From assembly GCA_001029635.1 (NCBI GenBank), contig CP011209.1:16983-80982 (forward strand): a DNA stretch of 64,000 bases, read 5' to 3'. Below the pieces are notes generated by a model. The model saw only the letters and a list, made by a program, of their open reading frames with translations. It was not told the DNA's origin and searched no databases. Shown here piece after piece: positions 5,388-45,255 of this stretch (its first letter is position 1; every line of letters starts with the position of its first letter). A program made the position numbers and the translations under genes. The stretch is from Candidatus Wolfebacteria bacterium GW2011_GWB1_47_1 (GTDB lineage Bacteria > Patescibacteriota > Minisyncoccia > UBA6257 > UBA9933).

Positions 5388-5397
5388 CCTTTTATAA

Positions 5398-10701: not shown

Positions 10702-11038
10702 TATGGTGATTATTTGCTTACTATTACCGTTAATTTATTCCGGACGTGGGTAAACAAAAAACCCACCACCAGATAGGCCTTACGGCCATATGCAAGTTTC
10801 CCTGCATAACGCAACAAGCGATCCTGATGATGGGATCTTTAAGCTTGTTGCGATTTTGCACCATACCTATCGCCGAGGCGGTAGGGTTAGGCACTTGCCC
10901 TTGCGGGCTCTATTCGGTTGTTAGCTTGATTATACGGCAAAAAATACGCTTTGGGTATGTTTATAACTTTTTACACTAAACCTGCCTCTATTGGGCTTAT
11001 TTTGCCCGTACATAGGTATTGGAATAAAAAGAGGGCCA

Positions 11039-11447: not shown

Positions 11448-11972
11448 TTAATCAATATTCACATGATCCGTTCTGATGCAAACGACATTAAATATTTCTT
11501 GCGTAAAAAACCCGAAAATTCTCCCGCCTCCTGAATATTGAACCTCTAAAATCTCAACCTCAGGAGATAAATTTCTATACAAAAATTCATACTTGCCTGA
11601 ATTCCCCACTTTATCTCTTATTAGTCCGGATTGTTGCGCGTCAGATTTTGTAGTCGCATTTATTTCAGAAAATTTACGGATTAGCGACTTCGCAGCTTCT
11701 TTCTGAATTTCATCGATTTGCCTATGCTCTAAGCTTTTTTGTTTTAAATGAATTGAGATGTTTTTCCCCTCGGGATCATCTCCGGTTGGAATAGTGATAG
11801 CGTCTGGTATTTTTCCTGCAAATAAAGTTTGTTCGATTGCCTTAACGGCATGTTCTAAATAAGGGGAAATCTCCTTATCCTTATTTTCTTTCCCAAATCT
11901 TTCGATCAATTCAAAAGCCTTAGCCTTAAACCATTTACTGTCCTTTTTTGATTTCTTCGAGCCTTCTCCCAT
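11448..11972 (-). CDS. hypothetical protein; candidate toxin partner of the upstream Panacea-domain gene (possible RelE/ParE-like fold at the C-terminus)
   Basis: 174 aa. Its start overlaps the 3' end of the DUF4065 gene by ~38 nt. The C-terminus GKYEFLYRNL...GGGRIFGFFTQEIFNVVCIRTDH loosely resembles the RelE/HigB pattern (..YRI.Y.....V.VL.IGHR). Confidence 0.45.
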   Translation of the reverse strand: MGEGSKKSKKDSKWFKAKAFELIERFGKENKDKEISPYLEHAVKAIEQTLFAGKIPDAITIPTGDDPEGKNISIHLKQKSLEHRQIDEIQKEAAKSLIRKFSEINATTKSDAQQSGLIRDKVGNSGKYEFLYRNLSPEVEILEVQYSGGGRIFGFFTQEIFNVVCIRTDHVNID

Positions 11973-12417
11973 AATATTCTTTCATAAGATCGGTGTTGAT
12001 TTCGTTATTGCAATATTCATCAATTGCACAACCGCTTCTTGCCTTTTGCCACGGTTCTTCATTATGAGTGAGGAGTTCTAAATAGTCAGCATCAAACTTC
12101 CCGTAGGCACTCCATACATTATCAAGCAATTTCTCTTCTTTATCTGATAAGGCCTCAAAATCACTTTTATTTACAGTAATACTAATATTTCCAAATCCAA
12201 ATTTTTTAAATTCAAAATATATCAATGGAATTGCTGGCCCATGAACCCATGCCTCGATTTGGTCGTCAAAAATCTTCTCCCCATTAAAAACAAGGCTCCA
12301 TGCTTGCGCATAATATAACAACTTTTGTATTTTTTTGTTAGTAATCTCCTCACCAGCAATCTGACTTTTGCTGATAAAATATTCAGCAATCACTAAACTT
12401 TTTGATTTTTGCATCAT
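11935..12417 (-). CDS. Panacea domain (DUF4065, SocA/PanA-like) protein, putative antitoxin
   Basis: 160 aa. KIQKLLYYAQAWSLVFNGEKIFDDQIEAWVHGPAIP matches the DUF4065 signature (KLQKLLYYAQ.W.L......F...I.AW..GPV). Confidence 0.65.
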   Translation of the reverse strand: MMQKSKSLVIAEYFISKSQIAGEEITNKKIQKLLYYAQAWSLVFNGEKIFDDQIEAWVHGPAIPLIYFEFKKFGFGNISITVNKSDFEALSDKEEKLLDNVWSAYGKFDADYLELLTHNEEPWQKARSGCAIDEYCNNEINTDLMKEYYGRRLEEIKKGQ

Positions 12418-14829: not shown

Positions 14830-14918
14830 ATTTGTTGAATTTCTAATTACTAATTTATAATTTTTAAATGATCACCCAGATATTAGGTCATCCATTAATA
14901 ATCAAGCATTAGAAATTT

Positions 14919-16232: not shown

Positions 16233-16337
16233 AAATTCGAAATATGAAAAGTGGAATATGAAAAATAAAGAAATATAATCCGTAGATTCTTACCCTCTCT
16301 TTCCCTTTTTCATTTTCCGCTTTCCTTCATTCGTGTA

Positions 16338-17479: not shown

Positions 17480-17542
17480 TGTCATTCCCGCGGATGCGGG
17501 AATCCAGATATTATATAGATTCCCGCCTCCATGGGAATGACA
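17480..17542 (-). repeat. hairpin repeat copy A (composite, two hairpins bounded by TGTCATTCCC / GGGAATGACA)
   Basis: TGTCATTCCCGC-GGAT-GCGGGAATCCAG ... GATTCCCGCCTCCATGGGAATGACA. The first half is the reverse complement of the CTGGATTCC-stem-GGAATGACA unit. Confidence 0.65.
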
Positions 17543-17551
17543 ATTTGATTT

Positions 17552-21004: not shown

Positions 21005-21110
21005 TACTGTATTGTATCAGATTTTATTCTTCTTACTATATAACGACGCTAAGCGTGGCTTGTTTCCGTATTAGTATTCCTTGATTCCCATCATTATTAT
21101 TCATAAGCCA

Positions 21111-21154
21111 TTGACATGATCACTTTAAACTAGTATTCAATAATCAGCTATTAT
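21111..21154 (+). promoter_or_regulatory. promoter and palindromic operator of paralog cassette 1
   Basis: TTGACA-N17-TATTCA followed directly by ATAATCAGCTATTAT. GAGGAGG SD 5-6 nt before the ATG at 21176. Confidence 0.6.
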
Positions 21155-21175
21155 CACCTGTTTTGAGGAGGCTCT

Positions 21176-21553
21176 ATGTTTAGCAAACTACGAGTGGATC
21201 CACACAAGAAATGCTTGGTCAACCTACCGGAAGGATGGGTCACGTTGTTCCTAGCAAGAACCCGCGAAAGTGCATTCCTTTTCGGAGCCGTTATTGGTCT
21301 CCGGGATAAATGCCTCCCGACAGACGAGGGCATACAACGCGAAATAGGAGGATTCGCTAAAGTTCTCCAGTTCACTGTGGAAAATATCCACGTCCTCGAT
21401 GTTTATCATGGTCATAAATACCCTCAAGGTGGAGGCCTGGTTGACGTTAACCTTCTAGACAAATCTGTGATCTGGGCAGGCGTAGACGAATGCGGGCGCA
21501 ACGAATTCTTCGGCGAACGCATTCCGCTTGCTGACGTTCTCGTTACCCTCTAA
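21176..21553 (+). CDS. hypothetical protein, member 1 of a tandem three-paralog family
   Basis: 125 aa. Shares GLP.GWVTLFLA, CLP, HGHKY..GGG and W...DECG...FGERI.P.DVLV.L with the two downstream paralogs. Confidence 0.65.
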   Translation: MFSKLRVDPHKKCLVNLPEGWVTLFLARTRESAFLFGAVIGLRDKCLPTDEGIQREIGGFAKVLQFTVENIHVLDVYHGHKYPQGGGLVDVNLLDKSVIWAGVDECGRNEFFGERIPLADVLVTL

Positions 21554-21572
21554 GCACTTCTCCGTTTCATCT

Positions 21573-21602
21573 GGAGCCCTCCTTCTCGGAGGGCTTTTTT
21601 TA
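21573..21602 (+). terminator. terminator of paralog 1
   Basis: GAGCCCTCC-TTCT-CGGAGGGCT followed by TTTTTTT, which runs directly into the next TTGACA. Confidence 0.8.
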
Positions 21603-21603
21603 T

Positions 21604-21647
21604 TGACATGCATTCGATAACTTGGTATTCAATAATCAGCTGTTATC
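21604..21647 (+). promoter_or_regulatory. promoter and palindromic operator of paralog cassette 2
   Basis: TTGACA-N17-TATTCA then ATAATCAGCTGTTAT. GGGGAG SD before the ATG at 21669. Confidence 0.6.
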
Positions 21648-21668
21648 AAACGTTTACGGGGAGACTTT

Positions 21669-22037
21669 ATGAACTTGCGCATCGTCAATGATACTATCGT
21701 CGGATTGCCTGACGGCAATACTGTTTTCTTCCTCGCCAAGGCGAACCTACACGGGGTTATCTACTGCTACGCCATATTCGGTCCCACCGCCACCTGTCTT
21801 CCAAAACCGGGAGAAACCTTTACCGAGCTGTTCGACGCAAAGGTTGCCGTCTTTCGCACCGATGGCAGCATGTACGCATTGTACTACGCACATCATGGGC
21901 ACAAATACGCCCTTGGTGGCGGTATGGTCGAGATTATCTCCGGCCGTTCCATCGTCTGGACCACTCCTGATGAATGCGGCTGTACGCGAATCTTCGGCGA
22001 GCGCATCCACCCTCGCGATATCCTTATCGCACTCTAG
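21669..22037 (+). CDS. hypothetical protein, paralog 2
   Basis: 122 aa with the same conserved blocks (FFLAKA, CLP, HHGHKY.LGGGM, TPDECG..RIFGERIHPRDILIAL). Confidence 0.65.
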   Translation: MNLRIVNDTIVGLPDGNTVFFLAKANLHGVIYCYAIFGPTATCLPKPGETFTELFDAKVAVFRTDGSMYALYYAHHGHKYALGGGMVEIISGRSIVWTTPDECGCTRIFGERIHPRDILIAL

Positions 22038-22040
22038 CTC

Positions 22041-22069
22041 AAAGCCCCGCGTATGCGGGGCTTTTTTGT
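22041..22069 (+). terminator. terminator of paralog 2
   Basis: AGCCCCGC-GTAT-GCGGGGCT followed by TTTTTTG. Confidence 0.8.
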
Positions 22070-22112
22070 TGACATCGTTTTTATAATCTGGTATTCAATA
22101 ATCAGCTATTAT
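22069..22112 (+). promoter_or_regulatory. promoter and palindromic operator of paralog cassette 3
   Basis: TTGACA-N17-TATTCA then ATAATCAGCTATTAT. GAGGAGG SD before the ATG at 22134. Confidence 0.6.
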
Positions 22113-22133
22113 AAAACGCTTTGAGGAGGGTAT

Positions 22134-22514
22134 ATGTTTAAGCACCTACGCGTAAACGAACAAACAAAGTGTATCGATGGCTTGCCGAAAGAATGGGTTA
22201 CTCTTTTCCTGGCAAAGGTCTCGGCTCGGTATGGTTTGCTCACCCATTGCGCCGTCATATGCCCCGACGTACTCCTCCCTGAAAAGAATCAGTTTTACTC
22301 CTCGATCGTAGGTGCTAAAGTCGTCCTATTTAACGGAAGAGCATTCAACTTGATCGACATCATCGAAGGATACAAGGTTCGGAAAGGCGGATGCCGCGTT
22401 CAGTATATAAAGAAAGGCCTCGTCGACTTTCCAGGAGAAATCCATAGTTATGACGGGGAGCATACCTTCGAAGATCGTCTTCTTCGCCCACAGGATGTTC
22501 TTGTCGCACTTTAA
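22134..22514 (+). CDS. hypothetical protein, paralog 3
   Basis: 126 aa. The most diverged copy (GLPKEWVTLFLAK retained, GHKY replaced by EGYKVRKGG), ending in QDVLVAL. Confidence 0.6.
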   Translation: MFKHLRVNEQTKCIDGLPKEWVTLFLAKVSARYGLLTHCAVICPDVLLPEKNQFYSSIVGAKVVLFNGRAFNLIDIIEGYKVRKGGCRVQYIKKGLVDFPGEIHSYDGEHTFEDRLLRPQDVLVAL

Positions 22515-22535
22515 TCTCCTCCCCGTTTCACCCAA

Positions 22536-22562
22536 AAGCCCCGCTTGCGCGGGGCCTTTTTG
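22536..22562 (+). terminator. terminator of paralog 3
   Basis: GCCCCGC-TTGC-GCGGGGC followed by CTTTTTG. Confidence 0.75.
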
Positions 22563-26133: not shown

Positions 26134-26169
26134 CCAAGGGCCACGCACATGTGTGGCCCTTTTTTTTAT
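26134..26169 (+). terminator. rho-independent terminator
   Basis: AGGGCCAC-GCACATGT-GTGGCCCT followed by TTTTTTTT. Confidence 0.8.
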
Positions 26170-26195
26170 CCCTTATTACCCATATACTCTACTTT

Positions 26196-26633
26196 ATGGA
26201 GGCCATAACCAACAAACGTGCCTATTTTGACTATGAGATCCTCGAAACCTTCGAGGCGGGCTTGGAATTGCTCGGAACGGAGGTGAAATCGGTCAAGGGT
26301 GGACGTATAAACCTTTCGAGCACCTATGTACTCCTCCGGGACGGCCAGCCAACCCTTTTTAATGCCGATATCCCACCCTATCAACCCAAGAATGCGCCTA
26401 AAGATTACAACCCCACTCGCACCCGTCGGCTCTTACTTACAGCCAAAGAAATCCAGTATTTAACAGGCAAAATCGAGGAGCGAGGGTTGACATTAGTGCC
26501 TTTGAAAGTATATACTAAGCATCAGCGAATTAAGGTTCTCGTCGGTCTCGCAAAGAGCCGAAAGGAACACGACAAGCGCGAAGCCATCAAAAAGCGTGAA
26601 GATTGGAAGCAAATCCGCAAGGATATCTTCTAA
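26196..26633 (+). CDS. smpB: SsrA-binding protein
   Basis: Starts at M16 of the track ORF (MEAITNKRAYFDYEILETFEAGLELLGTEVKS...), a canonical SmpB sequence. Confidence 0.95.
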   Translation: MEAITNKRAYFDYEILETFEAGLELLGTEVKSVKGGRINLSSTYVLLRDGQPTLFNADIPPYQPKNAPKDYNPTRTRRLLLTAKEIQYLTGKIEERGLTLVPLKVYTKHQRIKVLVGLAKSRKEHDKREAIKKREDWKQIRKDIF

Positions 26634-26639
26634 CCCATG

Positions 26640-26981
26640 GGGATGGCAGGCTTTGACAAAAGCGGCTCGTTGAAAAACTGCAGACCGGTCGTCATACCGC
26701 AACCTGACAAAAACCAATAACTGCCAACAAAACAGCAGTTCCTGCATTCGCTTTCGCGTAATGCAGTGTCGCCCCACCCTAAGCTTGTACGGTGGACGCG
26801 GCATCAACCCACAAGCTGGTTCAGTATCCGTGCCGTAGGCGCCTGAACGAGATTCAAATCGGCAAACTCAGTGGCGATTCGTCGGATTTTCTGCTTCTGT
26901 TTTACACTAACCCGACTATGTCTGTAGACGTCTTTCAATAACTCTTTTGGACGGGAGTTCAATTCTCCTCATCTCCACCAT
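26640..26981 (+). ncRNA. ssrA: tmRNA (SsrA)
   Basis: Lies immediately 3' of smpB. 5' GGGGATG pairs with 3' CATCTCC-ACCA, giving a 7 bp acceptor stem with a G3:U70 wobble (Ala identity) plus an encoded CCA. T-arm GGGAG-TTCAATT-CTCCT. Internal tag ORF GCC AAC AAA ACA GCA GTT CCT GCA TTC GCT TTC GCG TAA encodes ANKTAVPAFAFA* (~26724-26762). Confidence 0.75.
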
Positions 26982-27691: not shown

Positions 27692-27798
27692 ATTCACGGA
27701 TATCGAAGAATGGAAAACGGAATATAGGGGGTTCACTGGTTATATTTACAAACACTCCCCCCCTATTCCCTATTTCATAATTCATATTCCCTATTCTT

Positions 27799-29879: not shown

Positions 29880-29891
29880 CCGTGGGAACAT

Positions 29892-29920
29892 AAAAAAGGG
29901 GCGGATTCTCCGCCCCTTAC
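29892..29920 (-). terminator. terminator T1 of the small-gene array
   Basis: On the minus strand: AAGGGGCGGAGAATCCGCCCCTT followed by TTTTTT. Confidence 0.75.
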
Positions 29921-29923
29921 GTA

Positions 29924-30124
29924 TTACCTGTGATTACCCAGTGCCAACTCGGTCTGTTTTTGGATCTCCTTGGAGGCTCCCAAAATATCGGACAGTTCGT
30001 TCTCGAGCCTTGTTCGCTCGAACCGAAGCGCCTCCTCTTCTCCCGCGATCTCTCCGAATCGCTGTTCTATTACAACCACCCTCGCCTGTATCCTTTTTAC
30101 ATCTTCATCCACTAGACTTACCAT
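29924..30124 (-). CDS. small coiled-coil hypothetical protein (paralog of 30236..30451)
   Basis: 66 aa, charged and heptad-like. It has its own promoter/terminator module. Similar to the next small gene (IEQRFGEIAGEEEALRFERTRLENEL vs IASRLKGIEEEIRQRNTERDNLLLEL). Confidence 0.45.
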   Translation of the reverse strand: MVSLVDEDVKRIQARVVVIEQRFGEIAGEEEALRFERTRLENELSDILGASKEIQKQTELALGNHR

Positions 30125-30193
30125 GTCGATTACCTCCCGCCTCTCCTGTGGTGCATTTTAAATTTCTATCGTTTGTATACCACTTTTCTATCA

Positions 30194-30232
30194 CTTTTGC
30201 AAATCAAAAAAAGGCGGATACTCCGCCCCTTT
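30194..30232 (-). terminator. terminator plus promoter module T2 (reiterated intergenic unit)
   Basis: On the minus strand: GGGGCGGAGTATCCGCCTTTTTTTGATTTGCAAAA (hairpin plus T-run) then TTGCAA-N17-TATACA (promoter for gene 29924..30124). Confidence 0.65.
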
Positions 30233-30235
30233 GTC

Positions 30236-30451
30236 TTATGCCTGCGTCTCGAATATCTTATTCACCTGAATCCCTATCTGGGCAACGGACCTCCTTGTCT
30301 CCTCCAGCTCAAGTAAAAGATTGTCCCGCTCAGTGTTGCGTTGCCTTATTTCCTCTTCGATTCCTTTCAAACGAGATGCGATGGTCGTAATGCGATCTCT
30401 TACCGCTTGCGCCTCTACACTGGCGGGCGATCCAGGCCGTGTACTCGACAT
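30236..30451 (-). CDS. small coiled-coil hypothetical protein
   Basis: 71 aa, paralogous to 29924..30124. Confidence 0.45.
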   Translation of the reverse strand: MSSTRPGSPASVEAQAVRDRITTIASRLKGIEEEIRQRNTERDNLLLELEETRRSVAQIGIQVNKIFETQA

Positions 30452-30520
30452 AAAAAATTCCTCCCCTAAGATTGGACCCCTAATTTAATTTACTATATTT
30501 TATATATCATTCCTTTGCCG

Positions 30521-30558
30521 ATTTTGCAACAAAAAAAGGGCGGATCACTCCGCCCCCC
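30521..30558 (-). terminator. terminator plus promoter module T3
   Basis: GGGGGGGCGGAGTGATCCGCCCTTTTTTTGTTGCAAAATCGG on the minus strand. It shares the ~38 nt core with T2 and T4. Confidence 0.65.
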
Positions 30559-30568
30559 CTGCTACCAC

Positions 30569-30931
30569 CTAACGTATCCCGAAGGACGCAATCCTACTGA
30601 GATATAGGATCCCATAAACATCTTCGCGCATCTTTTTAGACCCCCTCCCAAGACGCACCTGCCTGAATCTTTTTTCAAATTCTTCAAGCTCAGCTACCAG
30701 CGTCCAGGTTTCGTTCCAAATCTTCCGCAGCTCGTCTTCCCCGTCATCATCGTCCCAGGTCCCTTCTACAATTCGTTCCCAATGAATAGTAACCCGCCTG
30801 TCTGTGAGCCTGTACCGTCTCGAGTTTATCGCCTGCAAGACTTGCACTAGCTCGTCGAACCCGCCACCACCCGGCTCCAGGTTGTTAGTGGCCCTTCTTA
30901 ACAAGATTACACTGTCATATAATTCCGCCAT
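30569..30931 (-). CDS. hypothetical acidic protein
   Basis: Trimmed to M45 of the track ORF (MAELYDSVILLRRATNN...). The upstream 44 codons translate the T4 terminator/promoter/SD repeat (AAAGGAGGAG lies 6 nt before this ATG). Confidence 0.5.
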   Translation of the reverse strand: MAELYDSVILLRRATNNLEPGGGGFDELVQVLQAINSRRYRLTDRRVTIHWERIVEGTWDDDDGEDELRKIWNETWTLVAELEEFEKRFRQVRLGRGSKKMREDVYGILYLSRIASFGIR

Positions 30932-30991
30932 AGCAGACTCCTCCTTTTCGCTTTTATTAATTTCTACCTTCTCTATACCAACTTTCTCCCT

Positions 30992-31030
30992 TTTTTGCAA
31001 ATCAAAAAAAGGGCGGATCACTCCGCCCCG
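30992..31030 (-). terminator. terminator plus promoter module T4
   Basis: Minus strand: GGGGCGGAGTGATCCGCCCTTTTTTTGATTTGCAAAAAAGGGAGAAAGTTGGTATAGAG, i.e. hairpin, T-run, then TTGCAA-N16-TATAGA. Confidence 0.65.
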
Positions 31031-31035
31031 TTCCC

Positions 31036-32167: not shown

Positions 32168-33361
32168 TTATTTGATGATCTTAGTAACAACACCTGCCCC
32201 TACCGTTCGTCCACCCTCGCGAATAGCGAAACGGGTCTGGTCTTCCAATGCTACCGGAGCGATCAACTTAACCTTAAAGGTTACGGTGTCTCCCGGCATA
32301 ACCATCTCCATGCCTTCCGGAAGCTCTACTTCTCCGGTCACGTCAGTGGTGCGGATGTAGAACTGCGGCTTGTAGCCCTTGAAGAATGGCGTGTGTCGCC
32401 CTCCTTCTTCCTTAGTCAGGATGAGAACTTCTGCTTCGAACTCGGTGTGCGGGGTGACCGATCCCGGCTTTGCCAGAACCTGTCCACGCTCCACATCCTC
32501 CTTCTTCAAGCCACGCAAGAGCAAGCCTACGTTGTCTCCTGCCATACCCGAATCCAGTAACTTATTGAACATTTCGATACCGGTAACAACAGTCTTCGCG
32601 GTCGGTCGGATACCAACAACTTCGATTTCCTCGTTTACCTTGAGTACACCGCGCTCGATACGTCCAGTTACAACAGTTCCACGACCTTCGATCGAGAAAA
32701 TGTCTTCTACTGGCATAAGGAATGGCTTATCGGTTGCGCGCTGCGGCTCCGGAATGTAATCGTCGCATGCCTTTACCAAATCGTAGATCGGCTTCAATGC
32801 TTCATCATCGGCATTTGTTGCCTCTCCCGCCTTCAATGCAGATCCACGGATAACCGGGGTCTCATCTCCAGGGAAGTTGTACTTCTTCAGCAATTCGCGA
32901 ACTTCAGCTTCGACGAGGTCGATCAATTCAGGATCGTCAACCATATCGCACTTGTTCAAGAACACTACGATTGCGGGAACGCCAACCTGGCGGGCCAACA
33001 AGATGTGTTCTCGCGTTTGTGGCATCGGGCCGTCAGTTGCGGATACTACGAGGATTGCACCGTCCATCTGCGCAGCACCGGTGATCATGTTCTTGATGTA
33101 GTCTGCGTGTCCCGGAGCGTCGATGTGCGCATAGTGGCGCTTCTCTGACTCGTATTCTGAGTGGTGCAAAGCGATCGTGATCCCACGAGCTTTTTCTTCC
33201 GGAGCGTTGTCGATCTGATCAACGTTCTCCTTTTTCTTAGACCATCCCTTCAAGAAGGTGGCGTTGGTGATAGCTGCCGTCAATGTGGTCTTGCCATGGT
33301 CAACGTGACCGATGGTGCCGATGTTCACGTGCGGCTTAGTTCGTTCAAATTTTTCTGCCAT
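32168..33361 (-). CDS. tuf: elongation factor Tu
   Basis: 397 aa with [23 protein letters not shown] and NKCD motifs. Confidence 0.98.
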
Positions 33362-33537
33362 ATGTTATGGGCGCAACATGGTCACAGATTACTGCGACAT
33401 AGAAATACTGTTAAACGAATCGCTTAACTGCATTTCCCTGTCGCATGTCTCAGCTCCCTTGTCGCTTTTGATTGGTTAGTCGACTTGTTTGTTTAATATA
33501 TAGTATTTTACCTCTTTTCGTCAATATGCCGATCTAT

Positions 33538-33600
33538 TGTCATTCCGGCCTCCCACTACCATGCAAATGATGTGGGGATGTACTTTCGCAGGGATGACGC
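33538..33600. repeat. TGTCAT-terminated inverted-repeat element (copy H)
   Basis: TGTCATTCCGGCC...CGCAGGGATGACG with an internal hairpin CCCAC..GTGGG, in the tuf upstream region. Related to copy E. Confidence 0.5.
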
Positions 33601-33615
33601 TCGAGGCGACGTTCA

Positions 33616-33969
33616 TCAAGCAATGAACTCAATCGTTGCCATTGCTGAACCGTCTCGCATACGTGCTTCCGCAGACTTTACCACACGGAGATATCCACCT
33701 CGTCGCGCCTTATATTTCGGTGCAACTTCGTAGAAGATCTTTTCCGCGGCCTTCTTCGGAAGTCGGGCGATGAGCAAGCGCAAGCTTGCCGTATCCTGCT
33801 TCTTTGCGAGTGTGACCATCTTTTCCACTTCCGGCCTCAGCTCTTTCGCTTTTGCTTCCGTAGTTGTGATCTTCTCTTCAAGAATCAGGTTATTCGCCAG
33901 AGTCTTCATGAGCGCTGTGCGTTGACCAGTCTTCCTATGAAATTTTCGTCCTTTCGCTAAGTGTCTCAT
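33616..33969 (-). CDS. rplQ: 50S ribosomal protein L17
   Basis: 117 aa, MRHLAKGRKFHRKTGQRTALMKTLANNLI..., canonical L17. Confidence 0.95.
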   Translation of the reverse strand: MRHLAKGRKFHRKTGQRTALMKTLANNLILEEKITTTEAKAKELRPEVEKMVTLAKKQDTASLRLLIARLPKKAAEKIFYEVAPKYKARRGGYLRVVKSAEARMRDGSAMATIEFIA

Positions 33970-33978
33970 TGTAGTTCT

Positions 33979-34734
33979 TTATTTTTTCCCTTTCTTTTTC
34001 GGCTCTTCCTCTCCTTCTTCGTCTTCCGTTTCCACGGTAACGTCGGCGATCTCAGCGACCTTGGAAAAGTGATCCTTGAGAATATTCGATGCCTTATGCA
34101 ACGCGAGGGAAGGCTTTGTACTTCCGTCGGTCTCGATGGTGAGCTTTATCTTATTGAAGTCAGTCCGCTCTCCTACGCGCATGTTCTCAACCACGAAGTT
34201 TACATTCGTGACGGGGGTGAAGATCGCGTCGATGGCAATGACGCCAACCGGCAACTTCTCAACCTTGCGCACTTCGACCGGTACGTATCCAAGACCTTTC
34301 TCGACAGTTATTTCCATTGAGAATTCGGTCTTCTTCTCCGTAAGGGTTGCGATGTGCGATTCCGGATTGATAACTTCAACCTGCGCATTCGCCTTGATGT
34401 CCCCTGCGGTCACCACCTTCTCTCCTTTTACGTCGAGGGTGAGGACTTGCGGTTCGTCAGCGTGGAATGCAAAACGTACTTTCTTCATATTCAACGCGAT
34501 CTCTACGATGTCTTCCATGACTCCGTCGATCGTCGTGAATTCGTGTTTGACGTTCTTGATCTTGATCTGGGTTACACACGCACCCGGAAGCGATGACAGC
34601 AACACGCGGCGCAATGCGTTTCCGACGGTCAGGCCATAGCCCGAGTACAAACCGTCGATCTCGAACACTCCTTCAGTCGCAGTTTCCGAAATTGTTTTGA
34701 TTTTTACCGACTCGCTTAATCGTGTATATTCCAT
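33979..34734 (-). CDS. rpoA: DNA-directed RNA polymerase alpha subunit, N-terminal domain only (no alpha-CTD)
   Basis: 251 aa. The alpha-NTD is conserved (GNALRRVLLSSLPG...), but the protein ends in an acidic/lysine tail (ETEDEEGEEEPKKKGKK) 10 nt before rplQ. No ~80 aa alpha-CTD is present. Confidence 0.9.
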   Translation of the reverse strand: MEYTRLSESVKIKTISETATEGVFEIDGLYSGYGLTVGNALRRVLLSSLPGACVTQIKIKNVKHEFTTIDGVMEDIVEIALNMKKVRFAFHADEPQVLTLDVKGEKVVTAGDIKANAQVEVINPESHIATLTEKKTEFSMEITVEKGLGYVPVEVRKVEKLPVGVIAIDAIFTPVTNVNFVVENMRVGERTDFNKIKLTIETDGSTKPSLALHKASNILKDHFSKVAEIADVTVETEDEEGEEEPKKKGKK

Positions 34735-34751
34735 AGAAAAAGAAATTTAGA

Positions 34752-35366
34752 TTATTTTGAGTAGAAATCGACAACCAGGTTAATGTCATACGGAATCTCG
34801 ACATCGAACGGAAGGGATTTTACCTTGCCTTCGAGTTTTTCCCGTTCGATCTGGAGCCAGACCGGAGTTTCGTATTTCTTCAGGTTCTCGGAAAGATCTT
34901 TGAACAACGGGGTTGTCTTTGATTTTTCCCGAACTGCGACGATATCACCTACCTTTACCTGAAATGACGATATTGTCACCTTCCGGCCGTTGACTAGGAT
35001 ATGACCATGACTAATAAACTGCTTTGCCATGATGCGCGACGGGGCAAACCCCATGCGAAACACCACGTTATCAAGACGTCGTTCAAGCAGGTTCACGATC
35101 GTTGTCGTAATAGCCTCCTTTTTATGCAACGCTTCCTTAAAGATGCGTTCCATCGCCTTCTCCCTTAGACCGTAGCTAAACATGATCTTCTGCTTTTCAG
35201 CAAGTTGGAGACCGTATTCAGACAACTGCTTTCTTCGGGACTTTCCGTGCACACCCGGACGATATGGTCGTCGGAGCAATGCGCACTTACCGGAGCTGCA
35301 TCGTTCTGCCTTCAGGAAGAGATGCACTCCCAGCGCCCGTTCTTTTTTTTCTTTTGGACCCATCAT
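34752..35366 (-). CDS. rpsD: 30S ribosomal protein S4
   Basis: 204 aa, ...GPKEKKERALGVHLFLKAERCSSGKCALLRR...YGLQLAEKQK... Confidence 0.95.
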   Translation of the reverse strand: MMGPKEKKERALGVHLFLKAERCSSGKCALLRRPYRPGVHGKSRRKQLSEYGLQLAEKQKIMFSYGLREKAMERIFKEALHKKEAITTTIVNLLERRLDNVVFRMGFAPSRIMAKQFISHGHILVNGRKVTISSFQVKVGDIVAVREKSKTTPLFKDLSENLKKYETPVWLQIEREKLEGKVKSLPFDVEIPYDINLVVDFYSK

Positions 35367-35369
35367 ATG

Positions 35370-35473
35370 AATGACTCAGAACTTATAACTCATAACTTAT
35401 GACGAGATTCTTAGGGATAACCCTGCCCATCCGCCTTCTGTCATTAGTCAATAGTTATTGGTTAATAGTTATT
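35370..35473 (-). repeat. alpha-operon leader element, copy 1 (upstream of rpsD)
   Basis: ~100 nt, homologous to 36463-36570. Conserved CCGCCTTCYGTCATTAGT and AATAGTT blocks, a hairpin AGGG-ATAA-CCCT, and AACTT-rich repeats abutting the start codon. Confidence 0.7.
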
Positions 35474-35929
35474 TTAGATTCTTCGCGGCTTTTTCGGTCG
35501 CGGACCGTTATGCGGGATCGGCGTCACGTCCTTTACGGAAGTGATATTGAATCCCTGGTTTGCGAACGAGCGGATCGCTGAATCGCGTCCCGAGCCGACG
35601 CCTTTCACTACAACGTCAATTTCGCTCAAACCAACTTTCTTCAATTTTTCGACCAGTGCGGCCACTGCCTTTGATGCGGCAAACGGGGTTGCCTTCTTCG
35701 GACCAGCAAAACCAAGACTTCCTGCGGATACCCATGCGATAACATCGCCTCCTCTATTGGTGACGGTGATCATCGTGTTGTTATAGGTAGCGTTGATGAA
35801 TACCTTCCCTTGTTCGATTTTACGCGATCCCCCTCCCTTGCCCGAGACCTTCGTCATGGTCTTCTCGAGGTTGTCGCTCTCCTTGAGCACCTGCGCTTCA
35901 GTTTGTTTTATGACTTTTTTCTTACCCAT
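35474..35929 (-). CDS. rpsK: 30S ribosomal protein S11
   Basis: 151 aa. The C-terminus GFNITSVKDVTPIPHNGPRPKKPRRI is canonical S11, with an N-terminal extension. Confidence 0.95.
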   Translation of the reverse strand: MGKKKVIKQTEAQVLKESDNLEKTMTKVSGKGGGSRKIEQGKVFINATYNNTMITVTNRGGDVIAWVSAGSLGFAGPKKATPFAASKAVAALVEKLKKVGLSEIDVVVKGVGSGRDSAIRSFANQGFNITSVKDVTPIPHNGPRPKKPRRI

Positions 35930-35946
35930 AGTTAAAGGAGGTTAGA

Positions 35947-36330
35947 TTACTTCAATGATGTCTTACGTCGTCCGCTCGTAGCGGTCTTGCGTACGTTTCC
36001 GCGTACGGTGCGGGAATTGGTCTTCGTTCGCTGTCCGCGTGTCGGGAGCTTCTTCATGTGCCGAGTTCCTCGGTAGCAGTTGATCTCCTTCAAGCGCGCA
36101 ATGTTCGTTTTGATAACCTGTCGCAATTCACCTTCGACCTTGCAGTTCTTTTCAACGTATTCTTGAATCTTTTTCATCTCATCCTGCGTGAGATCCTTTG
36201 CTTTCTTATCTACCGGAATCTTCGTGGCAGACAAAATAGCATCGGCAGTCGTCTTTCCGATGCCGTGTACGTATGTCAAGGCATACTCGATCCTTTTATT
36301 ATCTGGAATGTTTACACCAACTAATCGCAT
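35947..36330 (-). CDS. rpsM: 30S ribosomal protein S13
   Basis: 127 aa, MRLVGVNIPDNKRIEYALTYVHGIGKTTADAIL... Confidence 0.95.
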   Translation of the reverse strand: MRLVGVNIPDNKRIEYALTYVHGIGKTTADAILSATKIPVDKKAKDLTQDEMKKIQEYVEKNCKVEGELRQVIKTNIARLKEINCYRGTRHMKKLPTRGQRTKTNSRTVRGNVRKTATSGRRKTSLK

Positions 36331-36345
36331 GGTATTGAATGATTA

Positions 36346-36462
36346 TTAACCCTGTCGCTGTTTATGCTTAGGATTTTTCTTGCAGATGATAAATACGCGG
36401 CCTTGTCGGCGTACGGATTTACAATCCTTACAAATTTTTTTAACTGAAGCTCGAACCTTCAT
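36346..36462 (-). CDS. rpmJ: 50S ribosomal protein L36
   Basis: 38 aa, [38 protein letters not shown]. The track ORF is extended 5' by read-through of the leader repeat. Confidence 0.9.
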
Positions 36463-36570
36463 AATAAATGACTTAGAACTTTTAACTTTTGACTTTTGAC
36501 GGGTTGCGGGGAATTCTCCCCATAGTCCGCCTTCCGTCATTAGTTATCGGTCAATAGTTTATAGTTTATT
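36463..36570 (-). repeat. alpha-operon leader element, copy 2 (upstream of rpmJ)
   Basis: Homologous to 35370-35473. The hairpin here is GGGGA-ATTC-TCCCC, a compensatory variant of AGGG-ATAA-CCCT. Confidence 0.7.
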
Positions 36571-36810
36571 TTACATTCTCCTCACAATCCTTCCCCGCGC
36601 ACCATCTGGACTCAATTCAAGTGTGACCGTATCACCGGGCAGTATCTTGATGTAGTGCATCCGCATCTTACCTGACAAATATGCAAGAATCTCTTCGCCA
36701 TTCTCAAGCTTCACTCGAAATGTCGTTGCCGGCAGCGATTCAACAACAATACCTCGTGCGAGTGGCTTACCTTGATCTTTTATTTGCCTCGGTTGTCTCC
36801 TTGGTCGCAT
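36571..36810 (-). CDS. infA: translation initiation factor IF-1
   Basis: 79 aa. [59 protein letters not shown] matches IF-1. N-terminal extension [13 protein letters not shown]. Confidence 0.9.
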
Positions 36811-37043
36811 GTAGGTTAGATAGTAGACTAAAATAGGTGAACAGTCAAGCCATGCACTACCAAACTTGCAAGTTTGGTGTGTAGGTAAAAGTAAATCACC
36901 GCGTTTGCGGCTTTTTCATGATTTGTTCACTTCGTGTGCAGCATTCCCGGCGGTATGCATATATAGTACACTGTTTCTCTATAAAAACAAGGCCGCTGCG
37001 CGCGTCCACGGTTAATAGTTCACGGGTCATAGAAATTCCGCAT

Positions 37044-37149
37044 TGTCATTCCGAGCGGAGCGGTACTCCGCGTAGTCGAGGAATCTGCAGTCTATACACT
37101 TCCCTGCTACAGATCCTTCGACCCCACTCCGTTGCGCTCAGGATGACAA
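37044..37149. repeat. TGTCAT-terminated inverted-repeat element (copy E), MITE-like
   Basis: ~106 bp with 14 bp terminal inverted repeats TGTCATTCCGAGCG / CGCTCAGGATGACA (2 mismatches) and an internal GCGGAG-CGGTAC-TCCGC hairpin. It lies in the 490 bp gap upstream of infA. Confidence 0.6.
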
Positions 37150-37274
37150 TACAGGCGCTTTTCATTCCCAAACACAGGCTCCCATATCGTGATACGTGTC
37201 CGTCATCTGGCGAATCCGAAGGGAATCCACTTCATTTTTTCGTCTTACGATGACGGAAAATTGAAGACACCTAT

Positions 37275-37301
37275 AAAAATCCGCCAAAATGGCGGATTTT
37301 T
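37275..37301. terminator. bidirectional terminator
   Basis: AAAAATCCGCC-AAAAT-GGCGGATTTTT downstream of gene 37304..37597. Confidence 0.8.
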
Positions 37302-37303
37302 GT

Positions 37304-37597
37304 TTACATTCCCGTACCGTAACTATCCGGCTTATTTTTACTCATTTTATGCGGGTCCCTATTTTCGATACTTATGATATCTTCGGCGTTTATCTTAAAA
37401 TCGGCGCCCCTATCTAAGGTTATTTCCGAACCAACCATTCGCTTAAACTCTCCGGCGATTGTTTCGGCGGCTCCCTCTTTTTTAAAATACACATGGACCA
37501 TATCGCCCAGAGCAATATCCTGCTTTTTAATCTCATTGGCTATCCGCTCAACTTTTTCATCCACCTGCTCCTCCGTCCTCCTCGGCAATCCTTCCAT
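37304..37597 (-). CDS. hypothetical protein
   Basis: 97 aa ORF with a terminator downstream. No recognisable motif. Confidence 0.5.
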   Translation of the reverse strand: MEGLPRRTEEQVDEKVERIANEIKKQDIALGDMVHVYFKKEGAAETIAGEFKRMVGSEITLDRGADFKINAEDIISIENRDPHKMSKNKPDSYGTGM

Positions 37598-42273: not shown

Positions 42274-45255
42274 TTACTTCCACTCATCTACTTTGTAGAC
42301 ATATGTCTCTGTGTCTATGTCCGTATGGCTAATAGTCAGAATATCGTATCCGGTAGTATTTCGTATCAGTGCATAATACGCCCCAGACCCAGGCCAATAC
42401 CCTTCACGCACCTGTCCGGTCGTAGAAGAGTATACGGAGACTCGGTAAAACCTGTGGCTTTTCGAAGCAGCTTGAATATTAGCTATACCAGATACTTCCG
42501 ACCCACTATTTAAGGTGATAGATGATTCGGCAATAGTTACCCAAGTTTTACCCCCCAAGTTAGCAGCGGTTGTCTGTGTTGTCCCATCAGGGAATGTGAA
42601 TCCTCCACTCGAAGACCGAATCTGTCCCGCGACATCCAATTTATAGGACGGACTTGTATTCCCTATACCAACATTACCCGAGAAATACGTATTACCACTC
42701 GTTCCTCCCGAAATAGTCAGATATGCCGCATTATCGTTATGAATTCCTCCTCGTGCTTGAAGCGCTGCTGCCATATATACCGTCCCGCTGTTAAAGTAGG
42801 CGCCTCCCGGAGCAATAAAGTAGGAGGATGCGCTTATCGTCGGGTTTGCCACGTTGAAGGTAAGATTTCCTCCCAAGGTAATTGCCCCTGTATTGTATTG
42901 ATTTCCGCTATTATCCCAATACGACTGCCAGCTACCCGCTCCAGTAAGAAATCCAATTACATTGGAATTGGCGTGAATGGACTTTGCTCCCGACGTTGAT
43001 TCATCGTCGCGGAGATAGATGCGCGTCGACGCTAAAGGTCCAAATATGACATCCCCAACCACATCCAACTTCGCTCCTGGAGCTGATGTACCGATGCCGA
43101 CGTTGCCGGCGTTGTAATACGCAACTGTGCCACTTAATGAGAATGGCGACGCACCAGCAGGGCCGGTTGCTCCGGTAGGTCCTGCGGGGCCGGTCAAACC
43201 CGTCGCACCGGTAGCGCCCGTTGCACCAGTCGCGCCTGCGGGGCCGGCCGGCCAGCTCGCATAGCATGTTCCGCTAATACATAATGAAGATCCGTTAATC
43301 GAACCGTTTACATCAAGCTTGTATCCTGGAGTGGTCTTGCCGATACCGACGTTGCCGCCGTTAAAAAGAACACTTCCCGAGTTTGGAATATTGTTTGTTG
43401 CTGACGTATTGACGGATCCAATGACTGTTCCCCCTGCTCCACCGCAGGTGCCTGAAGCATTCCCTGTACAGATCGACCCGTATGAATAGATAGACGAACC
43501 CGCATTAAAGGTTGGTGCATTCACGCTTGCCCAATTCGAGCTTGATCCGCCATTGGCAACAATATTCCCGGCAGTCCAGATGCCGGTACCCAAGGCGGTC
43601 TGTGTAACGCCATTATTCATGACAAGGAGCTGATGATTGAGTCCCGCCTTTGATTGCGGGTTATTCCCAACCGAACCATAGTCGGGGTTGTATGACCAGC
43701 CAAGACCATACAATGTTCCATAGTTTGTCGTTCCACCTCCCGCAGGCAAAACATATGCGGGACCCATGGACCAAACTGCTTGCGTTTTGGTTGGATCGTA
43801 TGTGCCGATCGTACCGAGCCCTACATTACTAAAGGTTAGGTTACCACTCATTGTATCGCCCGTTTTGAGCACTTTAGTGTCATCGGCACTACTTGGCCAC
43901 GCAGTCTTATTAACGCCCCCCAGCGTAAGACCTCCCGTGCCGACGGTGATCGCAGGGCCTCCGCCTGCATTATTGAAATAGCCGGCAGGGCTTGTTGCGC
44001 TGTTGTTTTCTGCCTTGACGCCGCCACCGAACGTGGTGAGGCGATAGCTTACGTCGGGATTTGCCGTACCAATCCCAACATTGCCGGAAGTATTCGCAGT
44101 CAATAAATCTCCCGCAGAGGCATTCCACAAGCGAAATGTTACACCACTGGCATACCAAAGCCATGAAGATGAATCGTTCTTGAATCCGATCGCGGGGTAG
44201 TTATTCTTGAAGATACCGATACCTTGCGTTCCCGCCATTTGGGAAGTTGGATCTGTCGTACCGATACCGATATTGCCGCCATTCAAATAAGAGACGCCAC
44301 TCTGCGCCAAATGATACGCATTGGAATAGTTGGTCAATGCGCCATCTATGGCTGTTGTTTTATTCAAATAGAATGAGGGTCGATCGGTCTGGAAATGCGC
44401 ATAGCCTGCGTTCATCGCGCCAATATCAAGCACTCCGCTTCCGCTGTCGATGCGCAATGCGCCAGCCTGATCGCCTCGCACTGATCCGTTCACATGCAGC
44501 TTTACGGCAGGCGCGGATGTGCCGATGCCGACATTGCCCGTAACATACAGATTATTCGCAACACGTACGTGGTTGTCGCCATTGCCTACGGAAAGGATCT
44601 CCGTTGCGCCAGCGCGAGATGGATGGTCGTTATAAAAACGGGTTCCGCCATAGCTATAATATCCACCGATTTTAACACCGGTATGATAGCCAAAGATCAG
44701 ATCAGGATACGGGAACGCCCACGCGCCTCCCTCCTGATAGCCGAACTGATAGGCACGGTCGCCGGTGAGACCCGAATCAAATCCAACCCCGTTCGGGGTC
44801 ATAGTCCCACTCAGGGTTAGGTTACGCAATGCGGTAATATCATTGCCTGACATATTCAAGGCAGCGGTTGCGGTATGGTTGCCGAGATTGTCTCCACTCC
44901 CCCATGTTGTGCGATTCACACCTCCCAACGTAAGACCTCCCGTGCCGACGGTAATGGCAGGGCCTCCGCCTGCATTATTGAAATAGCCGGCAGGCTGGGT
45001 TGCGCTGTTGTTTTCTGCCTTAATACCGCCACCGCTGGTGGTGAGGCGATAGCTTGCATCAGGCGTTGCGGTGCCGATGCCGACATTGCCACCGGATACA
45101 TTTATCGCGTTAATACTGAGTGGCGGATTACTGGACGGGTTTGTCCAGGCAAATCCTTGTTGCGCAAATACAACGAGTCCGAAAGCAAAAATACTGCCGG
45201 TAATGAGCAATAAAAATTTATAGGGAGAAATCTTCATTACTAATAAGTATATCAT
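42274..45255 (-). CDS. large secreted repetitive surface protein with a collagen-like (G-A/P-T)n segment and tail-fibre-like Gly/Asn/Thr-rich repeats
   Basis: 993 aa. Signal peptide (LLLITGSIFAFGLVVFAQQ). The motif GNVGIGT.SP..KL.V.G recurs at least five times. The 39 aa block AENNSATxPAGYFNNAGGGPAITVGTGGLTLGGVN appears twice. Collagen-like run GPAGATGATGATGATGLTGPAGPTGATGPAG. Confidence 0.8.
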   Translation of the reverse strand: MIYLLVMKISPYKFLLLITGSIFAFGLVVFAQQGFAWTNPSSNPPLSINAINVSGGNVGIGTATPDASYRLTTSGGGIKAENNSATQPAGYFNNAGGGPAITVGTGGLTLGGVNRTTWGSGDNLGNHTATAALNMSGNDITALRNLTLSGTMTPNGVGFDSGLTGDRAYQFGYQEGGAWAFPYPDLIFGYHTGVKIGGYYSYGGTRFYNDHPSRAGATEILSVGNGDNHVRVANNLYVTGNVGIGTSAPAVKLHVNGSVRGDQAGALRIDSGSGVLDIGAMNAGYAHFQTDRPSFYLNKTTAIDGALTNYSNAYHLAQSGVSYLNGGNIGIGTTDPTSQMAGTQGIGIFKNNYPAIGFKNDSSSWLWYASGVTFRLWNASAGDLLTANTSGNVGIGTANPDVSYRLTTFGGGVKAENNSATSPAGYFNNAGGGPAITVGTGGLTLGGVNKTAWPSSADDTKVLKTGDTMSGNLTFSNVGLGTIGTYDPTKTQAVWSMGPAYVLPAGGGTTNYGTLYGLGWSYNPDYGSVGNNPQSKAGLNHQLLVMNNGVTQTALGTGIWTAGNIVANGGSSSNWASVNAPTFNAGSSIYSYGSICTGNASGTCGGAGGTVIGSVNTSATNNIPNSGSVLFNGGNVGIGKTTPGYKLDVNGSINGSSLCISGTCYASWPAGPAGATGATGATGATGLTGPAGPTGATGPAGASPFSLSGTVAYYNAGNVGIGTSAPGAKLDVVGDVIFGPLASTRIYLRDDESTSGAKSIHANSNVIGFLTGAGSWQSYWDNSGNQYNTGAITLGGNLTFNVANPTISASSYFIAPGGAYFNSGTVYMAAALQARGGIHNDNAAYLTISGGTSGNTYFSGNVGIGNTSPSYKLDVAGQIRSSSGGFTFPDGTTQTTAANLGGKTWVTIAESSITLNSGSEVSGIANIQAASKSHRFYRVSVYSSTTGQVREGYWPGSGAYYALIRNTTGYDILTISHTDIDTETYVYKVDEWK
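43150..43255 (-). repeat. in-frame collagen-like GXT/GXA triplet repeat (GC-rich microsatellite-like tract)
   Basis: GGn-CCn/GCn-ACn codon reiteration encoding (G-A-T)/(G-P-A) triplets. Confidence 0.7.
43913..44090 (-). repeat. intragenic ~180 bp direct repeat, copy 1
   Basis: Near-identical to 44925-45103. Both encode ...TPPxVRPPVPTV(I/M)AGPPPALLK on the antisense frame, which is why the track shows two spurious plus-strand ORFs. Confidence 0.75.
44925..45103 (-). repeat. intragenic ~180 bp direct repeat, copy 2
   Basis: See copy 1. The repeats are ~1 kb apart within the same gene. Confidence 0.75.

Follow-up and report, generated by a model that had tools for sequence, protein, structure and literature searches.

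Hairpins with heptamer-repeat arms fill the spacers before rpsD and rpmJ in a Wolfebacteria alpha operon and may couple translation across them

Why should a bacterium spend a hundred nucleotides on the space between two ribosomal protein genes? In bacteria of the candidate phyla radiation (CPR, or Patescibacteria), the genome is tiny and the ribosomes are unusual; hardly any of these bacteria have been cultivated. The question is raised by a stretch of 64,000 nucleotides (here called the window) from Candidatus Wolfebacteria bacterium GW2011_GWB1_47_1 (contig CP011209.1, positions 16,983 to 80,982), which carries an alpha operon in the order infA-rpmJ-rpsM-rpsK-rpsD-rpoA-rplQ. The HisRS encoded in the window matches that of Candidatus Wolfebacteria GW2011_GWE1_48_7 at 100% identity. 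Four of the spacers in this operon are 9-17 nt long. The other two, rpsK/rpsD and infA/rpmJ, are long, and each is filled from stop codon to start codon by one of two related elements, here called A and B. Each costs about 100 nt in a tightly packed operon, and yet is kept under selection.

The answer comes in two parts. By comparison with related genomes, A and B are constrained, structured elements under purifying selection. What they do is a harder matter. The reading favored here, to which we would assign a probability of roughly 0.4, is that the hairpins tie translation of the downstream gene to that of the preceding gene through unfolding of the RNA.

The genes lie on the minus strand, and A and B must therefore be read as reverse complements (Table 1). 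An earlier reading of this DNA, made from the sequence only, had proposed two homologous elements before rpsD and rpmJ. Homologous they are: 74 of 109 positions are identical on the mRNA strand (68%), and the block CTAATGACRGAAGGCGGA (TCCGCCTTCYGTCATTAG on the plus strand), common to both, has just these two exact matches in 64 kb, where 0.06 would be expected. The last 20 or so nucleotides before the ATG are nearly identical in the two, and an apical stem-loop is likewise common to both.

The arms are built from tandem heptamers. In both arms of A and of B, Tandem Repeats Finder detects repeats of period 7, in 3.3-4.4 copies. The units are degenerate (AACYAWT in the 5' arm, GTYRWRA in the 3' arm); the one array is complementary to the other and folds with it. 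In another register, the 5' arm of A reads AACTATT AACCAAT AACTATT GACTAAT GAC; the arm itself begins directly after the rpsK stop. The 3' arrays stop 2-10 nt short of the ATG; in A, 2 nt separate the 3' arm from the rpsD start. In B, AAUAAA (+1 to +6 after the UAA) is able to pair with UUUAUU (-6 to -1 before the AUG); in A, bases +1 to +7 after the stop are able to pair with -10 to -4. The AACTT(A/T) reiterations that the sequence-only reading noticed beside the start codons are period-7 tandem repeats, and form the 3' arm of a long hairpin. What that reading stated about the sequence is confirmed throughout; only its framing needs correction, as the genes lie on the minus strand.

Table 1. 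Positions, within the 64-kb window, of the host operon, of elements A and B with their parts, and of related hairpin spacers
Feature	Position	Strand	Evidence or remark
infA-rpmJ-rpsM-rpsK-rpsD-rpoA-rplQ host operon	33616-36810	-	ORFs (open reading frames), homolog alignments
infA	36810-36571	-	stop codon 36573-36571
rpmJ (L36, 38 aa)	36462-36346	-	ATG 36462-36460
rpsK	35929-35474	-	stop codon 35476-35474
rpsD	35366-34752	-	ATG 35366-35364
Element A, whole rpsK-stop to rpsD-start spacer, 107 nt, single interrupted hairpin	35367-35473	-	covariance model 122.7 bits
A 5' arm, heptamers AATAACT ATTAACC AATAACT ATTGACT AATGAC; proposed masking arm	35440-35473	-	Tandem Repeats Finder period 7, 35443-35473
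A core block CTAATGACAGAAGGCGGA, common to B, internal ATG 35440-35442	35430-35447	-	2 exact matches, 0.06 expected
A apical stem-loop AGGG-TTAT-CCCT	35413-35424	-	four pairs changed on both sides, 4 sequences
A 3' arm, heptamers GTCATAA GTTATGA GTTATAA GTTCTGA GTCATTC; proposed translation-initiation region	35367-35405	-	Tandem Repeats Finder period 7, 35374-35400
Element B, whole infA-stop to rpmJ-start spacer, 108 nt, paralog of A	36463-36570	-	covariance model 134.5 bits
B 5' arm, heptamers AATAAAC TATAAAC TATTGAC CGATAAC TAATGAC	36536-36570	-	Tandem Repeats Finder 36554-36569
B core block CTAATGACGGAAGGCGGA; ATG 36538-36540 opens spurious rpmJ extension	36526-36543	-	ORF list, exact match to A
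B apical stem-loop GGGGA-GAAT-TCCCC (L002: GGAGA/TCTCC)	36508-36521	-
B 3' arm, heptamers GTCAAAA GTCAAAA GTTAAAA GTTCTAA GTCATTTATT, adjoining rpmJ ATG	36463-36502	-	Tandem Repeats Finder 36478-36500
rpmI/rplT whole-spacer hairpin, arms of about 7-nt period, sequence unrelated to A/B	27692-27798	+	z -5.2
hisS/HIT whole-spacer hairpin, arms of about 7-nt period, sequence unrelated to A/B	14830-14918	-
lepB/hisS whole-spacer hairpin, arms of about 7-nt period, sequence unrelated to A/B	16233-16337	-	67% identical to L090 ortholog

On the mRNA strand, the folding z-scores of the two elements are -2.4 and -3.0, and each folds as one long interrupted hairpin across its spacer. A consensus structure was built from four sequences, A and B of the window and their orthologs in L001 and L002, two other Wolfebacteria species. 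It has 21 pairs, in helices of 3-5 bp with internal loops between them, and all 84 of its 84 cells are paired. Sliding the partners by 1-3 columns lowers pairing to 30-49%. In the apical helix, where compensatory changes had been noticed between A and B, four of the four pairs carry changes on both sides. The covariation that the sequence-only reading proposed to check is, in this set of four, supported. A contains 4-6 G-U pairs, and the mRNA strand gives it a better fold than the opposite strand does. When the elements are folded in context, the inner hairpin is kept.

As a neutral benchmark, we used the four-fold degenerate sites of five flanking genes. Identity at these is 0.588 between the window and L001, 0.562 between the window and L002, and 0.843 between L001 and L002. 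Against these sites, A is identical to its L001 ortholog at 97 of 109 positions (P = 4e-12), B to its L002 ortholog at 96 of 108 (P = 2e-13), and the A copies of L001 and L002 to each other at 108 of 108 (P = 1e-8). Thus A and B are constrained, and the earlier claim that they are not neutral spacer holds, at 89% against 56-59%. The flanking coding sequence diverges normally, which makes a recent transfer confined to the spacers unlikely. Conservation is graded along the element. Identity to the ortholog is 97% in the 3' arm of both A and B, 95% (A, L001) or 92% (B, L002) in the 5' arm, and 75% in the apical region, which, though the least conserved part, retains its stem.

The subfamily to which A and B belong is position specific within a narrow clade; where it is present, it is always upstream of rpsD and rpmJ. 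A covariance model of A and B matches only these two in the window. A metagenome collection scanned with a two-block pattern gave seven loci, four of them orthologous operon sites (L084-L087) and three of them chance coding matches; the scan found no dispersed further copies. One of the operon sites lies on an 893-kb contig, which holds exactly two copies, only at rpsK/rpsD and infA/rpmJ. Weaker but significant matches to the covariance model (33-47 bits) are AAC-type hairpins at other junctions of L001, L002 and L005.

Such a search for further copies had been suggested in case the elements were one more copy class of a dispersed family resembling transposable elements of the miniature inverted-repeat type (MITEs). 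They are not. That "MITE-like family" is probably an inverted-repeat family with the core TTGTCATTCC(G)AGC, found at 37038-37152, 33537-33550 and 17530-17543; its arms at 37043-37056 and 37136-37149 face each other. The A/B model has no match on the dispersed TTGTCATTCC repeat, and the two families are unrelated.

Conservation at orthologous positions, another check that had been proposed, gives a divided answer. The elements are kept in L001 and L002, as described above, but both are missing from the sister species L003, whose S11 and S4 proteins are 94% and 90% identical. Its two spacers are 31 nt and 42 nt long, and hold short direct arrays of arm-like heptamers. In L001, the core of B has been swapped for a different one.

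The architecture reaches much further than the subfamily. A survey of 80 Paceibacteria alpha-operon loci (a class sample of about 0.7 Mb) indicates that A and B are part of a wider Paceibacteria class: hairpin spacers of 70-160 nt with period-7 arms, at variable junctions of translation-gene operons. The 80 loci contain 79 spacers of 60-200 nt, and many of these fold along the whole spacer into hairpins that have complementary tandem repeats for arms. Lag 7 is dominant in 40 of the 55 strongly periodic spacers and in 23 of the 28 hairpins, while the heptamers themselves vary by genome (TAGAATA/ATTCCAA, GAATATAG/CCTCAAT, GTTTTAG/CTAACAC). The 24 heptad hairpins leave a median of 7 nt unpaired at each end, and their terminal complementarity exceeds that of cross-locus controls (P = 4e-4). 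Some members, such as L004 rpmJ/rpsM and L020, form near-perfect long helices, and a single family often occupies several junctions of one operon (L020, L042, L052, L010, L008). We found no earlier description of stop-to-start hairpins with heptamer arms in CPR/Parcubacteria in the literature searched.

Where do these hairpins sit? Long spacers occur at all six alpha-operon junctions (7-31%), so that the class has no specificity for the positions at which S4 leaders are found. Hairpins of the A/B architecture, too, are found at all six, rpsM/rpsK, rpoA/rplQ and rpsD/rpoA among them, and also in the hisS and infC operons. Heptad hairpins occupy 18 of 436 alpha-operon (ribosomal protein, or r-protein) junctions against 2 of 328 flanking junctions (P = 0.002); within the window, they occupy 5 of 12 translation-gene junctions and none of 42 others (P = 2.5e-4). 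At rpmI/rplT, a hairpin is present in five of five lineages (67-107 nt) with unrelated sequences, and the same is true of hisS/HIT in five of five. The lepB/hisS hairpin compares with its L090 ortholog at 67%, where four-fold sites give 34%. That hairpins of unrelated sequence keep appearing at the same junctions, and that they cluster at translation genes, points to a lineage-wide post-transcriptional device.

Members of the class turn over quickly. L001 and L002, 98.7% identical in protein, differ in the core of B, at rpoA/rplQ and at rpsM/rpsK. L001 has a 95-nt element at rpoA/rplQ where L002 has an ATGA overlap. In the rpsM/rpsK hairpin (L001 3890-4000, L002 3897-4000), all heptamers of both arms have been switched, from ACAAC/GUUGU to AUAAC/GUUAU, a case of concerted, compensatory evolution of repeat arrays. 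Elsewhere, direct heptamer arrays with no complementary arm lie right before start codons (L005 4442-4473, L003 4457-4498, L059 342-410 and 867-953); that of L005, before rpsD, consists of TTACCAA twice and TTACTAA twice. The repeat array may be primary, and the hairpin a derived state.

What, then, are the start sites like at which A and B end? A Shine-Dalgarno (SD) sequence is missing at both rpsD and rpmJ, as the sequence-only reading had said, yet the same holds for most genes in the window. That reading had also suspected that B made the called rpmJ too long. A 64-aa ORF (36346-36540) indeed opens at the ATG within B and continues, in the same frame, into the gene for the 38-aa L36; as a gene it is an artifact, because L36 is 38 aa long and aligns over residues 1-38 in all relatives. 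The internal ATG of such elements thus misleads gene callers into a 64-aa "L36," and the L20 calls of 124-126 aa in relatives may be a similar caller artifact.

The AUG of the core is kept, and opens short frames that begin MTEGG or MTEDG, with 15 codons in A, 20 in A of L001 and 14 in B of L002; the frame in B of the window runs into rpmJ. A leader peptide, or other coding upstream frame, was considered at this ATG and rejected because no peptide is conserved. The motif ACTATTWAACCAAT, tried as a free-standing signal, is not enriched. Neither A nor B holds a promoter-like site on either strand (scan for -35 and -10 boxes at 16-18 nt spacing) or a terminator-like site (scan for a G+C-rich stem with a U tract). 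A promoter-like site, TTGACT-17-TACTAT, lies upstream of infA at 36848-36820.

Translational coupling, which the sequence-only reading had listed as one alternative, would use these parts as follows. The 3' arm would be the A/U-rich, SD-less initiation region of rpsD, or of rpmJ and, through rpmJ, of rpsM-rpsK. The 5' arm, its complement from the first base after the upstream stop, would mask that region. In the folded state, positions from about -8 to -20 before the AUG would be paired, and independent initiation would thus be poor. A ribosome ending rpsK or infA would unwind the foot of the 5' arm. This, in turn, would free the initiation region beside the terminating ribosome, and the downstream gene would be translated in step with the upstream one. 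The hairpin would also bring the stop codon next to the start codon. As for the heptamer periodicity, its most likely origin is the growth of short repeats by slippage, while selection holds the arms complementary. Gating of translation by the hairpin, and its opening by ribosomes, are both what we infer.

Coupling is favored because geometry, conservation gradient and class behavior all fit a masked initiation region. The geometry is that expected where coupling works by RNA unfolding: the 5' arm starts at +1 after the stop, and positions -20 to -8 are mostly paired in context (probability unpaired 0.36-0.45). The gradient, with the 3' arm above the 5' arm and both above the apical region, is as predicted for an initiation region and its masking arm.

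There is a precedent in the rpmI-rplT pair of E. coli. These genes are coupled, at a spacing of +52 nt, and an inhibitory structure is opened by the ribosome that translates rpmI (Lesage 1992; Chiaruttini 1996; reviewed in PMC12548453). Here too, the setting is an r-protein operon with a long intercistronic distance, and Wolfebacteria have a hairpin at the very same junction. The parts are arranged differently, however. In E. coli, the masking strand lies in the upstream coding region; in A and B, the spacer contains both strands, each arm is an array of heptamers, and the closure runs exactly from stop to start.

Coupling would be a more compelling hypothesis if several observations did not weigh against it. 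Within the arms, unpaired positions match paired ones in conservation (88-89% against 88-90%), which points to recognition of specific sequence beyond pairing. The outer heptamer helices are weak, with short stems, internal loops of 2x2 to 4x4, and partial occupancy in context, and the first 15 nt of A after the stop are mostly unpaired in the in-context ensemble. Stability favors the mRNA strand in just 8 of the 24 heptad hairpins, and the opposite strand in 16; a test of G-U against A-C asymmetry across the 24 is uninformative, because heptamer repetition leaves 1-2 independent mismatch types per element. The four other operon junctions do with their short spacers, of course, and L003 does without A and B, so a hairpin is not required for coupling as such. 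Screens report that structure just downstream of a stop codon reduces coupling efficiency (PMC12548453). Coupling in this organism, moreover, is something that we infer.

Could A and B instead be autoregulatory leaders? Here, free S4 (or another r-protein of the alpha operon) would bind the internal-loop core and hairpin of both elements, and repress rpsD-rpoA-rplQ and rpmJ-rpsM-rpsK. The positions are suggestive. Lying right before rpsD and at the head of the genes rpsM-rpsK-rpsD, A and B stand at exactly the two places where S4 leaders are known or predicted in other phyla: candidates upstream of rpsD-rpoA-rplQ in Bacteroidia and Flavobacteria, which are simple hairpins, and leaders upstream of rpsM in Clostridia, Fusobacteriales and Gammaproteobacteria (PMC7247131). 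The likeness to such leaders (Alpha_RBS, RF00140; that of B. subtilis rpsD; the candidates of PMC7247131) extends to hairpin shape, to covariation and to narrow spread, r-protein leaders being typically lineage specific and the A/B subfamily being confined to two sites on the 893-kb contig. A and B have in common the purine-rich core AUGACRGAAGGCGG, and their unpaired arm positions are conserved. However, Rfam 15 at gathering score finds only the transfer-messenger RNA (tmRNA) and a LOOT RNA in the window, so that the comparison with leader families that had been suggested yields no family on A or B; at E <= 10 in 34600-37400, there is again nothing on either, and the best Alpha_RBS match lies elsewhere (at 36301-36335, with 12.9 bits where the gathering score is 38). 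With E. coli 16S rRNA as reference, local alignments of A, of B and of their cores do not surpass those of shuffles (P = 0.3-0.75); the best match of A falls in helix 16 (P = 0.6-0.75). L003 has neither element although its S4 is so similar, L001 has replaced the core of B, and it is the apical and core-flanking region, not the arms, that is least conserved. Unlike S4 leaders, A and B have tandem-repeat arms, and hairpins of the same build recur at rpsM/rpsK, rpoA/rplQ, rpsD/rpoA, rpmI/rplT and hisS/HIT, including junctions that have nothing to do with S4. The chance that two copies hit one of the two "S4 position" pairs is about 2 in 15. Leaders of r-proteins described for CPR/Patescibacteria were not found in the literature searched, and none matched here. 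Thus, of the cis-regulatory RNA that the sequence-only reading proposed, what stands is a homologous, structured, covarying element under purifying selection; the r-protein binding site is not supported. An S4 leader is less likely than coupling, but it is a serious rival, and of the alternatives it is the one to which we would give most weight. A role in mRNA processing or stability is a little less likely again. REP (repetitive extragenic palindromic) hairpins, and the intercistronic sites of T7 and of rplL-rpoB, split mRNAs into segments of differing half-life; A and B could do the same to the operon mRNA, as RNase III-type sites or as barriers to 3'-exonucleases. Their intercistronic location in highly expressed operons, the persistence of hairpins at fixed junctions despite turnover of sequence, the enrichment in translation operons and the long near-perfect helices of some class members would all suit such a role. 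RNase III sites are about two turns of mostly continuous duplex. In A and B themselves, however, no more than 5 base pairs follow one another and internal loops are many, which would make them poor substrates for an enzyme that cuts double-stranded RNA. Their weak, A-U-rich stems would be modest exonuclease barriers, and a stability hairpin does not predict that conservation be strongest, unpaired bases included, in the arm adjoining the start.

It might also be that the elements do nothing at present, being arrays made by slippage, or palindromic or mobile insertions, that are tolerated in spacers. Their presence does vary among close relatives (none in L003, two in the window, three in L002, four in L001), the rpoA/rplQ element is found in only one of two near-identical species, one family can fill several junctions of an operon, and stability shows no consistent strand bias. 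Among the long simple repeats of prokaryotes, heptamers are the most common (Mrazek 2007, cited in PMC4679880). REP palindromes and the mosaic elements built of them (BIMEs), like bacterial MITEs, are small, palindromic, intergenic and often intercistronic; they fold in mRNA, vary among strains, and have been credited with mRNA stabilization (PMC3733652, PMC3184786). True MITEs even occur at the same start codons in L028: compared with L030, its region 3200-4750 contains one with terminal inverted repeat CCCGTTAGAGACA and target duplication ATGAA, exactly at the rpmJ and rpsD starts, the same two genes that A and B precede, and a second, nested palindromic element lies at rpsK/rpsD. A and B are of another kind. 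REP/BIME palindromes measure 20-40 bp and come in tens to hundreds of copies, whereas A and B measure 107-108 nt, come two per genome, and lack a GTAG/CGTC tag. As MITEs they were considered and rejected: there is no target-site duplication, no heptamer-free palindrome and no clean empty site (the L003 spacers are mini-arrays of related heptamers), and the two copies, 68% identical and without further kin, are conserved far above synonymous sites. Idle debris is hard to square with 89% identity against 56-59% at four-fold sites, with 100% against 84% in the closer pair, with 67% against 34% at lepB/hisS, with stems kept by compensatory changes, or with enrichment at r-protein junctions, where insertions should be costly. 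We consider lack of function improbable.

Cold-shock domains bind about 6-7 nt. This gives some interest to the idea that each heptamer is one binding unit for a single-strand RNA-binding protein of the OB-fold (oligonucleotide/oligosaccharide-binding) type, such as a cold-shock protein, S1 or an IF1-like protein, whose footprint would be about 7 nt. Once bound, the protein would melt the hairpin and thereby adjust translation of the downstream gene, for example with temperature or growth rate. Period 7 dominates whatever the heptamer sequence (in 40 of the 55 spacers with strong periodicity), conservation extends to unpaired bases of the arms, and direct arrays without a partner arm precede start codons in L003, L005 (rpsK/rpsD) and L059. 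In Beggiatoaceae, Cyanobacteria and Bacteroidetes, there are direct TAACTGA heptanucleotide repeats closely upstream of start codons; they have been suggested to act post-transcriptionally, and the arrays before the S4, L3, S1 and S21 genes of Beggiatoaceae drew the same OB-fold proposal (PMC4679880). A and B resemble these arrays in their period, in lying a few bases from the start codon, in their SD-poor context, in r-protein operons that include the site before the S4 gene, in stops in all three frames, and in having at least two tandem 7-nt copies near the start. The TAACTGA arrays, however, are a single direct heptamer with no predicted fold (169 direct sets against 1 inverted), where A and B have two complementary arrays, a hairpin around a unique core, and heptamers that vary by genome. 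The short tandemly repeated repetitive sequences (STRRs) of cyanobacteria are intergenic heptanucleotide repeats of the TAACTGA-like type. Heptamers that differ wholly between genomes would need a factor nearly blind to sequence, which conflicts with the conservation of A and B, and replication slippage alone also gives period 7. Of the explanations weighed here, an OB-fold array is the least probable.

A bolder view takes in the whole class. A and B would be the first recognized members of an undescribed CPR/Paceibacteria class of stop-to-start hairpins, with arms of complementary heptamer arrays kept so by concerted repeat evolution (as in the rpsM/rpsK switch between L001 and L002), concentrated in r-protein and translation-factor operons, that replaces SD-based initiation at internal cistrons. 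The stop would be held against the next start, letting one and the same ribosome initiate again across a helix that stays closed, a bacterial ribosome shunting, or else an OB-fold protein that reads 7-nt units would open the hairpin. In the leader of the 35S RNA of cauliflower mosaic virus, where ribosomes shunt, and in the bypass of T4 gene 60, one foot of a long hairpin is where a reading frame stops, and the next start follows directly beyond the other foot. The stop and start of A and B lie at opposite feet in the same way. Those systems are eukaryotic or phage, however. This view, too, has long odds against it, about as long as those against lack of function.

If the hairpins do gate internal initiation, as the coupling reading has it, they would reveal how bacteria in which SD sequences are largely missing fix the stoichiometry of their operons. 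They would also give a function to the start-proximal heptamer repeats of Beggiatoaceae, Cyanobacteria and Bacteroidetes.

Some other features of the window deserve mention. The gene order around the alpha operon (32168-36917) is unusual: the operon begins at infA, with a divergent neighbor, tuf comes after rplQ across a 254-nt spacer, and secY-adk-map is not upstream. Upstream of infC-rpmI-rplT, smpB is followed directly by the tmRNA gene (RF00023, 118 bits; 26151-26980). The LOOT RNA (RF03000) lies at 10775-10893 on the minus strand, at 77 bits against a gathering score of 46.4, and overlaps a called 77-aa ORF on the other strand. In 21099-22560, a 65-nt repeat occurs three times (21099, 21591 and 22057), each time before a small paralogous gene of 125-132 aa. 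These genes have a strong SD, TTGAGGAGG, with G+C-rich hairpins between them, in contrast to the window's SD-poor remainder. In 29890-31031, small genes without Pfam matches have around them, 3-4 times over, terminator-like hairpins AAAAAAGGGGCGGAT.CTCCGCCCC and a repeat of 59 nt. A 993-aa protein encoded at 42274-45255 on the minus strand consists in part of collagen-like triplet repeats, and its gene has internal DNA repeats of a 204-nt and a 53-nt family. Finally, a defense-type cluster at 3165-8153 and 11935-12417 includes an AAA_13 ATPase and the specificity and methylase subunits of a Type I restriction-modification system, with a SocA/Panacea antitoxin domain protein nearby.

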